A stretch of 64,000 nucleotides of DNA from Picochlorum sp. SENEW3 (lineage: Eukaryota): assembly GCA_034226945.1 (NCBI GenBank), contig CP120463.1:868001-932000 (forward strand), given 5' to 3'. Within the stretch, counting starts at the first letter, position 1, and every line of letters begins with the position of its first letter. The notes beneath the pieces are model-generated. The model saw only the letters and a list, made by a program, of their open reading frames with translations. It was not told the origin of the DNA and did not search any database. A program made the translations under genes and the position numbers. Shown in pieces: positions 9,480 through 46,829 of this stretch.

Positions 9480-10002
9480 ACCCCCGGTCCGTCCCAGAGC
9501 CAATGCACCGTTTAGTGTAAGGCAGTTCTTTGCTGAAAGGACCACCGCCCCCAGGCTCGGGGCTGTTCACTCCCATGTCGCCGAGGCGGCAGAACAGCTC
9601 GGAGACAGCGGGGTCTGGTCTGGAAGGCCCAGAACAACCAGTCGACGCCAAGGGGTTGGGTGATCCCATCCCGAGGTGTGGGAGTGAGTTTTTAGTGAGT
9701 GCAATCCTCACATGCCTGGAATGGTATCTGGACACCCAGCTGGCGGCCACTGCTCTGTCTCCTGACAGGCACGGGCCACCAGGAAGGAACCACTTGCAAC
9801 GTGGGCGCTTCTCATTGACACCCCAAGCTTCCTCAGTCGCACAGGCAGCCGGGTTCCCTCACGAGGAGGCCGCCCACGCAAGCAGCAACTTTGTGTCGGC
9901 CCAGATTTTCTCACTCTCTTGCTTCTTCAGCACACCAAGGGGCGGTCGGATCCGCTGTTCCAGGGCCTTGGCGTGCAGAAAACACGGCTCAAAAAAAAAA
10001 AA
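9480..10002 (+). mobile_element. Non-LTR retrotransposon copy 3, 5'-truncated (511 bp plus poly(A))
   Basis: Near-identical to 12489-12999; same 3' end and poly(A). Confidence 0.95.
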
Positions 10003-10006
10003 CAAA

Positions 10007-12672
10007 GATGCCATTATAGCCAGCTCGCCACGGATCCAGACAGTCAATCGCTACAATGGTGGGCCGACCACCAGCCCATGGAACAGCAGCCGCCGATTGA
10101 AGCCTTGAATGAAGACATTACATGGGAGGAATTGAATGGTGTCCTGCACCAGCTCAAAACCAGTAAGTGTCCTGGCATGGATGGTCTCCCTAACGAATTC
10201 CTTCGCTTGTGTCGTGTAGATTTGACCTCCAGCTCCCCAGAATCGGCGATGGGCACGGTTTTGCTGCGGACGTGCAACTCGGTATTCTCGGGCAACATCT
10301 CTGATGCCCTGAATACCAGTCTCGTCGTCTCCCTGCCCAAGCCAAACAAGGATTTCACCTACTTGAGCAACAGGAGAGGTATCAGCTTAATCTCCTGCGT
10401 GCTCAAGTTGGTCACGAAAATTGTCGCAAACAGATTCCAACAACATGCAGTCCCAGGCACGGGAGGCCTGCGCAAGGAGCAAGCAGGCTTCCGCCTGCGG
10501 GAAGAGTGCAACGCACAGGCCGCCACCCTCATAGAAATTGCAGGTAGACGGGGTGCAGAAGCGAAGCCGACATATGTCGCCTTCATGGACCTCCAGAAAG
10601 CCTTTGACATGGTCCCACACAATGGCATGCTTCACATCCTCAGAGCCAAAGGAGTCTCAGGTAAGTGCTGGTCTTTCATTCAACGCCTGTATACCAACGG
10701 TACCTTCCGCGTTCTAGTGGGTCCCACAACCTCAGACCTGGCCCCACTAGAACGCGGGGTGCGGCAGGGGGACAGCTTGTCTCCCCTGCTGTTCAACTAT
10801 GTCATGGATTCTTGCCTTGACAATCTGTCAGGAGTTACTGTCCCTGGAATGTCCCAGCGCATTCCAGGGCTCCTCCTGGCAGATGACGCTGTTATTCTTG
10901 CCAATACAGACACGGAGATGAGGGATAATCTGGCAGCCTTTGGGGAGTGGGCGACGTCGTGGCACATGAAGATTGGCCACGACAAATGCGGACTCATGGT
11001 CTTGCACGATCAGCCTGCACACAGCAAAGCCAAAGATTCAGTCTGGCGTACACAAGGGAGTGTTATTCCAGTTGTGGATCAGTATACATACCTGGGACTC
11101 ACCATCGACACAGAGGTATCCACAGCTACCATGGCAGAAGCCAGGGCAGTCACCGGGGCCAAAACGCTCAGCCACTTGGCCCCGTTCCTGGCACACTCCT
11201 CCATCCCAGTGGCGATGAAGAAGATGGTGATCAATGGTATCCTCCTCCCTCAGCTGTGCTATGGTGCAGAAGTCTGGGCAGACAAGCAGTGCAACATTCC
11301 TCCAGTACAGCGCATCCTGAACAATGCTCTCCGCTTGACCACAGTCGGCAGAATGAAGAACAAGCGAGCCATCAGCACCCACATCGTTCACGAGGAACTG
11401 GACATAGCAAATATCAGCGCTATTGCTACGTCCCAAAGGGTACGTGCATGGATCAAATGGCGTCACCTCCATACTTGGATTGCAGATTTCGTCAGAGACC
11501 GCAGCTTCTCTCGGCTCAGCTGGACCCAGCCCTCCAGCAGGATTTTCAGCAAACAGATGGCACGCTTGGGACTCTCGTCTGCAGATGTTGAAGACCTACA
11601 GCCAAAGACGGTGGCTAAGCAAGTGAAAGAGGCATTGAGCAGAGAATACCGGTCCACCAGCACGGCAGCCGCTGGGGGACACTACTTTGCCAACAATATG
11701 CAGAACACGAAGACATACCTGAAGACTAGCACACATCGGGCCACCCCTGTGGACATGCATCGACTTCTTAGGACCAGACTGAACGCGTGGCCAGGCCTGC
11801 TCTACAGATTGTCCAAATGGCACGAAGTATGCCTCTTGCCAGGCTTTGAATGTGTGTGCCCCTCGTGTGACAGCGCCCCGAGGGATGACCTCCACCACAT
11901 TGGCATGGTGTGTCCAGCATTTCAGGAACAGCGAGAAGCCATTCTCAGACCAGCGATAGACGCCATCACCAAGTTCTTCGACGACCACCAGCTGCAACGT
12001 CGAAGTGACACTGTGTGGACAGCGTGCCTTGGAGGTCTCTCCACCACTGACGCTGAAATTCTTCAGAAATTTCAGCAAATGTGGGTGGGCACGCCGTTCC
12101 CACAGCCAGCCAGGGGGACAGCCCCCCACGTGGAAGGGACTCCCTCCCAGCCAGCCAGGGAGTCCCACAGGTATGACTTACGATCTACGTCTTCTACTGA
12201 CCATACTAACAATTTATCTACTCACGTGCGAGGGACGAGCCCTCCAGATGAGATGCCCAGTGTGCAGGACACAGACAGTGATGGTTCCTCAATGCAGGCA
12301 CCAGAGGACTCAGCCATGTCTTGGCTGATGGATGAGGACGAGGATGGAGAAGACACAGCCTCGATTGGCGAGGCCAGCAGCAGCCAGCCACAGATCCCGC
12401 TGTGGCAACGTGTAGGCAGATTTTTACATCGAGTGCTCGGCAAGCACTTTCAGAACATTCGTGATAAGGTGACCCAGCGCAGAGGGTCACCCCCGGTCCG
12501 TCCCAGAGCCAATGCACCGTTTAGTGTAAGGCAGTTCTTTGCTGAAAGGACCACCGCCCCCAGGCTCGGGGCTGTTCACTCCCATGTCGCCGAGGCGGCA
12601 GAACAGCTCGGAGACAGCGGGGTCTGGTCTGGACGGCCCAGAACAACCAGTCGACGCCAAGGGGTTGGGTGA
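10007..12672 (+). CDS. LINE-type reverse transcriptase, N-terminally truncated (RTE/RTEX/L1-like; clade not resolved)
   Basis: KCPGMDG, NRRGISL, EQAGFR, AFMDLQKAFDMVPH, GVRQGDSLSPLLF, LLADD, YTYLG; C-terminal CPSC-x8-H-x4-C zinc knuckle. Confidence 0.9.
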
Positions 12673-13018
12673 TCCCATCCCGAGGTGTGGGAGTGAGTTT
12701 TTAGTGAGTGCAATCCTCACATGCCTGGAATGGTATCTGGACACCCAGCTGGCGGCCACTGCTCTGTCTCCTGACAGGCACGGGCCACCAGGAAGGAACC
12801 ACTTGCATCGTGGGCGCTTCTCATTGACACCCCAAGCTTCCTCAGTCGCACAGGCAGCCGGGTTCCCTCACGAGGAGGCCGCCCACGCAAGCAGCAACTT
12901 TGTGTCGGCCCAGATTTTCTCACTCTCTTGCTTCTTCAGCACACCAAGGGGCGGTCGGATCCGCTGTTCCAGGGCCTTGGCGTGCAGAAAACACGGCTCA
13001 AAAAAAAAAAAAAAAAAA
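10007..13018 (+). mobile_element. Non-LTR retrotransposon copy 4 (about 3 kb, 5'-truncated: RT, CCHC finger, 3' UTR, poly(A))
   Basis: Carries the RT reading frame to the stop at 12672, about 330 bp of 3' UTR and A19; no endonuclease domain upstream, consistent with 5' truncation. Confidence 0.95.
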
Positions 13019-13088: not shown

Positions 13089-13188
13089 AGCCGGAGGTCG
13101 CCAGTTCGAATCTGGCGGATGGCATCTTCCGTCACAAACAGAGTTAGTGCCATCCTAGCTTAGCCTTGGTTAGAGCGTCGGTTTCATA
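13089..13188 (+). tRNA. Circularly permuted tRNA-Met(CAU): 3' half 13089-13124, 24-nt spacer, 5' half 13149-13188
   Basis: Joined 5'+3' halves give GCCATCC TA GCTT AGCCTTGGTTA GAGC G TCGGT TTCATA|A GCCGG AGGTC GCCAG TTCGAAT CTGGC GGATGGC A: perfect 7-bp acceptor stem, perfect T arm; T6 Pol III terminator at about 13213. Confidence 0.9.
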
Positions 13189-13485
13189 ACAATCAAATGA
13201 CATGTGAGACTCTTTTTTCGTCTGTTTGCCCGTTTCAAAGTATGCAAGCTTCTTTTGGACCAAGTCTACATAGTAAGAAGCGTCTGATGTGGTCACCATG
13301 GATGGGCCGCATTCAACATGGTTGAATTAGGATTAGGAATATGTTCGAAATGTACTATATTTTTGATCGAAACTTTGGATAGAGCGTGGGTTTCATTACA
13401 GACATGAAATGTGATACAGGGCCCTGGACGGTATTTCATGCATTGTACCATCACACATACTTTATTTGTTACATACATCTATATG

Positions 13486-43964: not shown

Positions 43965-46829
43965 ATGCCCCAGCCTCAGCCACCTATTGGTGGTAAACAA
44001 ATGCTTCTGGACAAGAATACGAAACTGAGTGCTCAAGTGGCAACGCAGCGAAAGGAAATCAATGATTTGAAGGACAGACTGCATAATTTAGAAAACGAAG
44101 AAATAAAATGGAAGGATACAGCTGCTTGTCTGACGTCTGTATGGGACGAGTTGAACTCATCGCTTGGCTTTTTGCAATTCAAGTACGTGGCCGTCTATTA
44201 TGGTGTCTTCTTGCTGATTCTTCCTTCATTGTTTACATATGTTTATTCAGAGTCAATGAGAGTGCCGAGGTTGCACCCGCTGGGTTGGATGCGTCTTCTG
44301 CGAAAGCTCTTCTGGAGGAGACGAATCCTTTCCTGGCCCATCTCCTTTCTAGGTACTTGCCAGACGATCCTGTGGCGGCCAAGTCGGCCAAGAACCTGGC
44401 AGATGATTTATCTGAGACGGAGAAGGCGCTTCGAAATAAAATGAAGGACACAATGGCCGTGGCTTCGTCCATTTTGAATGCTATAGAGGAAATGAAAGGA
44501 GCAGGGATTGGTGGAGGCAGCCTTCCTGGCTTTGAAGAATCCAAGCTGGCAGCTCTTGTGAATATATTAAAGTCTGAGAATGGCAAATTGGTGAAGGATT
44601 CCCTGTCGGACTCGATAGCGATCAGGCAGCTGGAGGCAGACATTGCTGATAAGGAAGCAGAGATACAAGTGCTGCATCGCAAGCTCATGATGGAGAAGAG
44701 TGTCGACAGGGGTGGAGGGGATGTGGGCGTGTCTCGGTCGGAAGAGGCCCCAGAGGGCATGAGCAAAGGGGTGTCTCGGAATGGGTCTGAGCAGAAATTA
44801 GTATTGGACCAAAAGGATGAGGCTGCACCTCAGGTGGAGGCTCTCAAGAAAGAGGTGGAGAAGAGGGATGGAGACATTGCTCGTTTGGAGAGGTATGTGT
44901 TTCTTGCAAAATGTCTAAAAAGTAGTGCCGAAGTCTGGCGCGCTAATCCACTGCGCTAAGGCGACAGAACGAGATGAACTCGTTCTCGCATAGTACCTCT
45001 ATGAAAGAGGTCAGACTATATGACCCTCCCTGTCACGGGAGTCTAGAAACCGGAATCTAGGACGATTTTACTGTCCTAAACACGGAATTTCGCCATCGCC
45101 TGCGGGGATCGAACCCGCGACCTCCAGATGACATCTGGGCGCCTTGGCGGCATAGTGCAAATAAAGAATTTTTTTTTGCTTGGATCCATGGGTGGTTGTG
45201 CGGCGCGTCGTTACATCATGTCGTTCGTCTTGTTCTTGCAGTGAATTATACACGCTGAGGCGTGAGATGGACGCAGTGTCCGAGAATACAAAGATACAGG
45301 TCGCGCAGCGCCAAGAAAAACTGGACCTGCTGACTGAAGATGTGGAAAGGGTGAAGCAAAAATTGAAAGATTCCTATAGAGAGCAAGATCGCCTGAATTC
45401 CAAGTTGCGGGATGCAGTGCGGGATCTTGAAAAAGGTCAAAGAGCTCTCAGACGTGAATCCAGGCTGGAACATGCAATATCGGAGCTGGAGGCACAGGTG
45501 AAGCGCCTTAGGACAGAGCGGAATGAGGCTGAAAGACAGTTGCAGGAATGCAAGCACAATGATTCCTCTCAGACTCGAGATGAGTTGCTTCAACAAATGC
45601 AGGGAATGGAAACAGAGATGAAGATGCTGAAATATGCGGTTTCAAAGCACCAAAAGGCTGCCGAGGTTGTGGAGGAAGCAGACAAGCTCAAGTCTGCCCA
45701 TGAGGTGGAGATTGCAGAGTATAGATCCCGGGTTGCTGACATGAATAAGCAGGTGAGCGCTTCGATGGTGAAACTCAACGATTGGATTCAAAAGTATGTG
45801 GATCAAACAAAGGTCAATGAAGAGCTCCGCTGCTTCCTGGAATTGTCCCAGGAGTATCTGGGAAAACATGAGACAATGGAGGCTAGCATCAGGGATGCCA
45901 TACACGAGTACCTGAAAACGCAGATGTCGTCTTTGGAAAATCGGTTCACAGCAGCGATGAAAGAGTCGCGTTCAGAGAGAGAAAGACAGATGACTCAAGA
46001 GATCAATGAGCTTCGGAATGAGCTCGAGGGCATCAAGGGAAAGCAGGCAGGCTTGCTTTCAGAGGTTGAAAAGGTCCGTTCTGAGAAGGCAAATTTGATG
46101 ATCGAGGCAGATACGTTTTGGAAGGAAATGGATAGTGTCAGTGAGGCTTATGAAGCTTCGCGAGATCAAAATACAAAACTGCTGTCTGCCATGTCCAAGA
46201 GAGATGAGGACAATGCCAGACTTCTGAGTGAAGCAGCTGCTGCAGCTAGAGACAAAACAATCATGGAGGAGGATAGGGATATGGCGCAAAGAATGATGAA
46301 GCCTATGGAACAAAAAGCACAAGATGCGGAAGAAAGAGCGAAAGAAATAGAAGAAAGGTTTGATCGATTATCTAAAGAGCGAGATGTCTACAGGACAGAT
46401 GTGCAGCACTCGAAGGAGCAAATAGAGTCTTTACAGAGCGAGGCCAAAGCTTTGAGAATTTCCATGGATGCATTAAGATCCGAATTATCGAACGCAAAGA
46501 AAGATATCGTGATGATAGAAGCTGACAAAGCAAAGCATTTGGCAGCATTGAAGTCTGAGAAAACAAGAGCTGATAGGGCAGAGAGGATTCTGTCAGGTAG
46601 AAAAGACCTGAAACTACAAGCGGGCGAAGAAGCGGAGAGGGAGGTACTGAGAAAGATGGTTAATTGCAGTGTCTGCTCGACACGTTTGAAAGATCGTATC
46701 ATCACCAAATGCAATCATTTGTTCTGTTCTGCATGCATTGATGTCAACTTGTCCAGCAGGCACAGAAAGTGCCCTGGCTGTGGAGAAAAATTTGGCGTGG
46801 GCGATGTGAAACCATTTTATTTTACATAA
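43965..46829 (+). CDS. HUB1: Histone H2B ubiquitin ligase BRE1/HUB-like
   Basis: Exons 43965-44182, 44251-44892, 45242-46829 splice in frame; long coiled coil and terminal RING CSVC..KCNHLFCSAC...RHRKCPGC...F...DV. Confidence 0.85.
44928..45129 (-). tRNA. Circularly permuted tRNA-Arg(UCG): 3' half 45129-45094, 128-nt spacer, 5' half 44965-44928
   Basis: Joined halves give GTCGCCT TA GCGC AGTGGATTA GCGC G CCAGA CTTCGG|A TCTGG AGGTC GCGGG TTCGATC CCCGC AGGCGAT G: all four stems pair; TTTTT terminator 6 nt after the 5' half (44921-44917). Confidence 0.92.

Follow-up and report, generated by a model that had tools for sequence, protein, structure and literature searches.

The 64,000-nt stretch of Picochlorum sp. 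SENEW3 DNA analyzed here (contig CP120463.1, positions 868,001 to 932,000; hereafter the window) carries on its minus strand a tRNA-Arg(UCG) gene with its two halves in reversed order, lying antisense within a spliceosomal intron of a gene for a RING ligase of the BRE1/HUB1 type. Read 5′ to 3′ on the minus strand, the unit (44917..45154) consists of a leader, the tRNA's 3′ half, a spacer, the 5′ half, the hexamer CACTAC, and a run of five T (T5). The 3′ half comprises the 3′ strand of the anticodon stem, the variable loop, the T arm, and the 3′ acceptor strand with G73; the 5′ half comprises the 5′ acceptor strand, the D arm, the 5′ strand of the anticodon stem, and the anticodon TCG. CCA is not encoded. 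When the halves were joined by script, ARAGORN returned a single call, a 74-nt tRNA-Arg(tcg) in which all four stems are paired, with one wobble pair (G1:U72). Inspection by eye for the conserved tRNA positions found T8, A14, G18G19, A21, T33, a purine at 37, G53-T54-T55-C56, A58, and C61. Since the 3′ half precedes the 5′ half on the same strand and joining yields a complete cloverleaf, the gene has the type II permuted layout. The initial annotation of this DNA had described a permuted tRNA-Arg(UCG) with its junction at positions 37/38 and four pairing stems, and both the coordinates and the anatomy hold in the joined fold.

Host gene and splicing of the host intron

Both exons flanking the intron at 44893..45241 encode coiled-coil sequence, and the downstream exon also encodes a Pfam zf-C3HC4 domain (residues 475-513, E 1.5e-08). 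Relatives of the host protein carry the JGI name 'E3 ubiquitin-protein ligase BRE1'; HUB1, the name used in the initial annotation, is the Arabidopsis name. The host gene is thus a BRE1/HUB1-type RING ligase. A neighboring PsbP gene encodes a protein with 100% identity over 205 residues to one listed by NCBI for Picochlorum sp. BPE23, which places the window in this trebouxiophyte or a near-identical strain.

Evidence for splicing came from unstranded transcript contigs of public runs, two of which (X10 and X12) represent one study and one organism, 95-99% alike. In these two of the four runs, contigs pass straight from 44890 to 45240; the 349 nt left out have GT..AG ends at the cut +2, and the spliced contig covers 44500..44890 of the upstream exon. 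Intron 44893..45241 is therefore really spliced. Contigs from the other two runs (X15 and X17) gave partial cover only, with the junction not covered in spliced form. Together with the open flanking frames, these contigs bear out the antisense placement within a spliceosomal intron that had been claimed from the sequence. Mean intron lengths of 88-133 bp are given for three Picochlorum genomes in the portion of PMC6141220 drawn on here. The strain represented by X10 and X12 lacks 3 nt at 44757 (+) in the upstream exon, an in-frame difference in a low-complexity coiled-coil linker.

Detection of the gene and chance controls

The gene escapes standard searches. On unjoined DNA, ARAGORN found no tRNA in the whole 64-kb window and Rfam gave no match at gathering score; at a loose threshold, the Rfam tRNA model scored 14.8 bits (cut-off 29), on the 3′ half only. 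A scan for permuted genes was built on their order of parts: on both strands, a T arm was required to be followed within at most 400 nt downstream by a fully complementary acceptor strand, and ARAGORN was then run on the joined pieces, so that the scan covers anticodon-loop junctions with an intact T arm. In the real window, nine candidates yielded two tRNA calls, the tRNA-Arg(UCG) gene and a tRNA-Met(CAT) gene described below, whereas 163 candidates from 30 dinucleotide shuffles yielded none. The statement in the initial annotation that both tRNA genes found in the window are permuted is thus upheld by ARAGORN, Rfam, and the scan (two of two). Permutation may be common in this genome, an idea that two tRNA genes in one window test weakly.

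The tRNA-Arg(UCG) gene has exact matches to the A box and to the B box, one each for this gene in the window. Box matches by themselves occur at chance frequency across the window (24 A-box matches versus 23.9 expected by chance, and 12 B-box matches versus 13.8), so it is the combination that counts. In the 19 open reading frames (ORFs) of the window with at least 350 codons, CGA accounts for 13% and CGG for 12% of arginine codons. A loose Rfam search of 44700..45400 gave weak matches only, none of them inside the spacer, and no C box was seen there by eye; the spacer was accordingly rejected as a small nucleolar RNA or other known RNA.

Orthologous loci and selection on the tRNA parts

A search of metagenome contigs with a 25-nt probe taken from the 5′ half, spanning the D loop to position 37, identified two further loci, designated L001 and L002. 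Both show the permuted layout, their parts arranged as in the window, and joining the halves gives a 74-nt tRNA-Arg(tcg) in each case. The gene is again antisense to its host in both, and the intron that contains it interrupts the orthologous BRE1 gene at the same codon and in the same phase; the host introns are of similar length: 349 nt in the window, 350 nt in L001 (1252..1601), and 338 nt in L002 (737..1074). None of the two probe matches in the metagenome contigs was a canonical, unpermuted gene, with the probe lying wholly within the 5′ half. The host proteins are 51% (over 416 residues, L001) and 42% (over 412 residues, L002) identical to that of the window, compared with 33% for a named Nannochloris homologue; on these identities, L001 and L002 probably belong to other members of the Picochlorum clade.

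A three-way alignment revealed that conservation is concentrated in the tRNA halves. All 38 columns of the 5′ half are invariant; 25 of these were fixed by the probe, and the remaining 13 are invariant too. The 3′ half is invariant at 32 of 36 columns and the 24-nt leader at 15 of 24. Corresponding counts elsewhere are 11 of 128 in the spacer, 21 of 88 in the far-upstream part of the intron, 3 of 11 in the trailer plus T5, and 8 of 24 in the rest of the intron. Of the four substitutions in the 3′ half, one is at a T-loop base of L001; the others, all in L002, affect the discriminator and replace G49:C65 by A49:U65, a compensatory change in the T stem. Across the three loci, cloverleaf cells are paired in 63 of 63 cases, or in 72 of 75 when the junction helix is included, compared with 32-48% in slid controls. 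At a shorter evolutionary distance, the 95-99% alike strain contigs vary at 14 sites of the intron, none of them within the 74 nt of the halves, an outcome with a probability of about 0.04 by our own arithmetic if sites are random. These comparisons indicate that the tRNA parts are under purifying selection across three lineages. A tRNA pseudogene or tRNA-derived repeat does not fit this pattern: only the halves and the leader are constrained, a pair has changed in compensatory fashion, and the boxes occur once each.

Despite the near-equal total length of the three introns, their internal segments are uneven. In the order window, L001, and L002, the spacer measures 128, 103, and 72 nt, the intron sequence preceding the 3′ half 112, 97, and 133 nt, and that following the T run 24, 62, and 50 nt.

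Junction helix, transcript signals, and conserved blocks

Signals expected of a single transcript are present at all three loci. No T4 run occurs in the three spacers or in three 40-nt leaders, and a T run follows position 37 after 6 nt in the window (T5), after 9 nt in L001 (T5), and after 3 nt in L002 (T6). Each locus therefore has the makings of one transcription unit, its spacer being free of terminators and its 5′ half followed by a T stretch. Three pairs at the junction, namely, C32:G-3 (which is the anticodon-intron pair), U34:A-5, and C35:G-6, are identical in the three loci, and the bulge bases at -1 and -2 differ between them. The 37/38 junction accordingly has the bulge-helix (hBH) motif, including the anticodon-intron pair, in relaxed form. 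The initial annotation had noted from the window alone the T4-free spacer, the TTTTT after the 5′ half, and the C32:G(-3) pair with two further pairs of a 4-bp helix; all of these recur in both orthologues, the helix being partial.

Positions -25 to -3 of the leader form a conserved block (L001 1324..1346 (+); L002 944..968 (-)) of the form GCCGCCA..GGCGCCC(A/G)GATG, for which pairwise alignments scored against shuffles gave p values of 0.000-0.022; the strain contigs have no differences in leader positions -25 to -1. Leader bases -9 to -4 are complementary to tRNA positions 38-43, so that a hairpin is possible. The block resembles tRNA positions 22-31. An origin as a fossil half was rejected as a conclusion from sequence similarity: alignment of the 45-nt leader with its own 5′ half gave Smith-Waterman p values of 0.20, 0.26, and 0.72, not above shuffles, so that similarity alone does not support the fossil reading. 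Alignment of the trailer with the 3′ half was likewise not above shuffles (p 0.15-1.0), and no pseudo-A-box matching the consensus TRGCNNAGTGG at up to one mismatch was found in the leader.

The spacers of the window and L001 share a block with a local alignment score of 27, the maximum of 1000 shuffles being 26. Its hairpin keeps the stem CCTCT/AGAGG with an altered loop, and L002 is without the 5′ strand of this hairpin. Coordinates of all features are given in Table 1.

Table 1. Features of the permuted tRNA genes and of the host gene in the window (positions on minus-strand features of the tRNA-Arg(UCG) halves, boxes, spacer, trailer, and T run are given 5′ to 3′)
Feature	Position	Strand	Remarks
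tRNA-Arg(UCG) 3′ half	45129..45094	-	tRNA positions 38-73
B box	45115..45105	-	exact match, inside 3′ half
Spacer (intervening sequence)	45093..44966	-	128 nt; no T4 run
tRNA-Arg(UCG) 5′ half	44965..44928	-	positions 1-37, 38 nt; one extra D-loop base; anticodon TCG
A box	44958..44948	-	exact match, inside 5′ half
Trailer CACTAC	44927..44922	-	between position 37 and T5
T5, presumed Pol III terminator	44921..44917	-	directly after CACTAC
Junction part of leader	45130..45135	-	-1/-2, bulge; -3 to -6, GATG read 5′-3′
Conserved leader block	45132..45154	-	-25 to -3
A9 run + TTTATTT, possible AT-rich upstream promoter	45159..45177	-	A9, 45177..45169; TTTATTT, 45165..45159
Spacer block GTCTGACCTCT..AGAGGTA..CGAG	44985..45016	-	~33 nt, with hairpin; common to window and L001 only
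Host intron, GTATGT..TTGCAG	44893..45241	+	349 nt; spliceosomal; phase 2; Ser codon split AG|T
Upstream host exon (checkable part)	44207..44892	+	open frame; coiled coil; 48-49% tblastn identity to L001/L002
Downstream host exon	45242..46829	+	open frame; C-terminal RING finger; to stop codon
tRNA-Met(CAT) 3′ half	13089..13124	+	followed by 24-nt spacer
tRNA-Met(CAT) 5′ half	13149..13188	+	followed by 24-nt trailer
tRNA-Met(CAT) T6	13213..13218	+	after trailer

Proposed maturation and alternative explanations

What the data show is the anatomy of the gene, the removal of its host intron by splicing, and selection acting on the parts of the tRNA. From the comparative sequence evidence, the locus is very likely a functional type II (37/38) permuted nuclear tRNA-Arg(UCG) gene of Picochlorum, antisense in a BRE1/HUB1-like intron. 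By analogy with Cyanidioschyzon merolae, we infer maturation through a circular intermediate. In the proposed scheme, RNA polymerase III (Pol III) would make a single transcript comprising the leader, the 3′ half, the spacer, the 5′ half, and a short trailer, stopping at T5. The halves would fold into a cloverleaf whose acceptor stem is closed by the spacer loop, and leader bases -3 to -6 would pair with positions 32-35 to form the relaxed hBH junction. The tRNA-splicing endonuclease would cut after G37 and before A38, and tRNA ligase would join the ends to give a circle, from which RNase P and tRNase Z would excise the 128-nt spacer; CCA would then be added.

Several observations weigh against this reading. 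The single covariation is not significant with three sequences, 170 of 500 shuffles reaching it. The junction helix is incomplete, U33 and U-4 being unpaired in all three loci (9 of 12 helix cells paired), and there is no outer leader-trailer helix, which leaves the relaxed hBH form reviewed for green-algal permuted genes in the portion of PMC3978253 used here. Minimum free energy (MFE) folds of the three loci favor the leader hairpin over the anticodon stem, the margins being 7.9, 4.8, and 2.6 kcal/mol, and they contain only 12, 12, and 5 of the 21 cloverleaf pairs. The AT-rich A9/TTTATTT element upstream carries six strain differences (45159, 45160, 45163, 45174, 45175, and 45179) and has no counterpart at this place in L001 or L002. 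Among the transcript contigs, low-depth contigs of the intron cross the exon-intron borders and thus stem from DNA or unspliced pre-mRNA rather than from a Pol III product. The 128-nt spacer is also longer than that of every one of the 34 permuted genes tabled in 2014, whose intervening sequences span 1-74 bp according to the part of PMC3978253 consulted.

The contigs crossing the exon borders with no Pol III product among them, the unconserved upstream AT-rich elements, and the MFE folds that do not favor the cloverleaf would all suit a decaying or redundant relic; in that case the tRNA would come from a canonical tRNA-Arg(UCG) gene at another site, and the rearranged copy would be silent or dispensable. 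Such a relic is improbable, however, since the halves have stayed nearly invariant at 42-51% host-protein identity while the rest of the intron diverged, the T-stem change is compensatory, and the placement of the terminator and the T4-free spacers have been kept in three of three loci; among the matches of the 25-nt probe in metagenome contigs, moreover, none of the two was canonical. The unusual length of the spacer (72-128 nt), and the block common to two of the spacers, which could be a promoter, raise another possibility, namely, a split tRNA made from two separately transcribed half-genes that are joined in trans, the promoter of the 5′ half lying inside the 128-nt spacer. This is very improbable. 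In none of the three loci is the 3′ half followed by a T run, the shared block is absent from L002, and the position of the acceptor strands on either side of the spacer is exactly that of published permuted genes read as one transcript. In Nanoarchaeum-type split tRNAs, trans-joining would need a helix between leader and trailer, which are not complementary here, and the halves at the present loci are on the same strand, separated by 72-128 nt that contain no terminator.

Conservation of the intron position, together with the similar intron lengths (349, 350, and 338 nt), could also be taken to mean that the element serves the host gene, as an intronic splicing or antisense regulatory sequence derived from a tRNA, with no tRNA made. 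There is little to recommend this view, which we consider most unlikely: conservation tracks the cloverleaf exactly, even at the edges of the halves and in the compensatory pair, the minus-strand T5 or T6 located 3-9 nt after position 37 is kept as well, and the second gene of the same build in the window is intergenic. A further idea, which goes beyond the functional permuted gene favored here and is rather doubtful, is that the locus forms an obligatory nested unit that is read in a manner of its own. Across lineages of the Picochlorum clade, the intron may be held at the same codon and at about 340-350 nt because it houses the only tRNA-Arg(UCG) gene of the cell. The leader block may be a fossil of the 5′ half of an upstream copy, and hence a direct trace of origin by tandem duplication, or it may serve the orphan 3′ half as a co-transcriptional placeholder. 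Another possibility is that the block and the B box jointly provide a substitute internal promoter for Pol III despite the reversed order of the A and B boxes.

Comparison with known permuted and split tRNA genes

The 34 permuted tRNA genes tabled in 2014 derive from C. merolae, four prasinophytes, the Bigelowiella natans nucleomorph, and Thermofilum pendens, and those of green algae are nearly all type II in the account given there (Soma 2014, PMC3978253, consulted in part, as for the comparisons that follow). The closest resemblance is to the genes of the prasinophytes Ostreococcus tauri, O. lucimarinus, Micromonas pusilla, as well as Micromonas sp. RCC299, and of the B. natans nucleomorph, which are likewise type II with a 37/38 junction and share the relaxed hBH motif, the downstream T stretch, the terminator-free spacer, and the absence of an encoded CCA (Maruyama et al. 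2010, as reviewed in PMC3978253). In contrast, Arg(UCG) is not among the tabled genes, arginine being represented only as TCT (O. tauri) and CCT (C. merolae), and prasinophyte and B. natans spacers measure 5-64 bp, compared with 128, 103, and 72 nt at the present loci (PMC3978253). The present gene is nested in an intron, whereas the part of PMC3978253 used here mentions no intron-nested case for the prasinophyte or B. natans genes, and its host lineage is the Trebouxiophyceae rather than the prasinophytes or the B. natans nucleomorph.

The permuted genes of C. merolae have the same layout as the present gene, and that species is the only system in which the circular-intermediate pathway, aminoacylation, and an upstream TATA-like promoter have been studied, as far as the consulted part of PMC3978253 goes. 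However, C. merolae is a red alga whose genes have four junction positions, often with strict hBHBh' motifs and extra introns, and its TATA-like element is conserved (Soma et al. 2007, as reviewed in PMC3978253), unlike the AT-rich element of the window. In the archaeon T. pendens, a circular permutation is resolved by the splicing endonuclease, as proposed here, but the junction lies at 59/60, spacers are 1-7 bp, CCA is encoded, and the promoter is archaeal (Chan et al. 2011, PMC3218864; PMC3978253, each in part).

Within the same class, Trebouxiophyceae, permuted tRNA genes have been reported in Auxenochlorella UTEX 250-A, where the tRNAscan-SE set was incomplete owing to genes with reversed halves; the example shown, in the legend of Figure S1, is trnP-UGG, compared with Arg(UCG) here (Plant Cell 2025, PMC12636532 / PMC12633428, consulted in part). 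A 2026 review, in the section drawn on, names only red algae, O. tauri, and B. natans for permuted tRNA genes, and among the papers listed by our literature search none reported such genes in Picochlorum. The genome paper of Picochlorum sp. BPE23 annotated noncoding RNAs by Rfam cmscan, and the word tRNA is absent from it; tRNAscan counts of 42, 24, and 75 are available, from a source used in part, for three Picochlorum genomes.

Permuted tRNA genes are thus already known in green algae, including the trebouxiophyte Auxenochlorella. What is new here is the isoacceptor, a spacer beyond the 2014 list, antisense nesting in an intron kept in three lineages, and a conserved leader. The results extend permuted tRNA genes to a second trebouxiophyte genus and indicate tolerance of spacers considerably longer than the published 74 bp; the comparison of three lineages, moreover, reveals a permuted gene and its host intron inherited together. 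Annotations of industrially used Picochlorum probably lack part of the decoding set, since ARAGORN and Rfam miss the present gene, the BPE23 annotation relied on Rfam, and the tRNAscan counts of two genomes are low (24 and 42). Picochlorum is transformable, so that the conserved leader offers a handle on Pol III transcription with reversed A and B boxes and on the origin of permuted genes.

A second permuted gene and a neighboring retroelement

The other tRNA call of the window is a permuted, elongator-type tRNA-Met(CAT) gene at 13089..13218 (+), likewise with a 37/38 junction and located in an intergenic region rather than an intron. All four pairs of its junction helix form, and a leader-trailer helix (GTCTCA/TGAGAC) is present, unlike in the tRNA-Arg(UCG) gene.

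Upstream of it, within 9766..13018 (+), lies an ORF for a reverse transcriptase (968 residues), whose terminal stretch is repeated at 12775..13018 and ends in a run of 19 A, about 70 nt upstream of the tRNA-Met gene. The element looks like a poly(A)-tailed retroelement without long terminal repeats (non-LTR) inserted just upstream of a Pol III gene, and perhaps consists of two head-to-tail copies.

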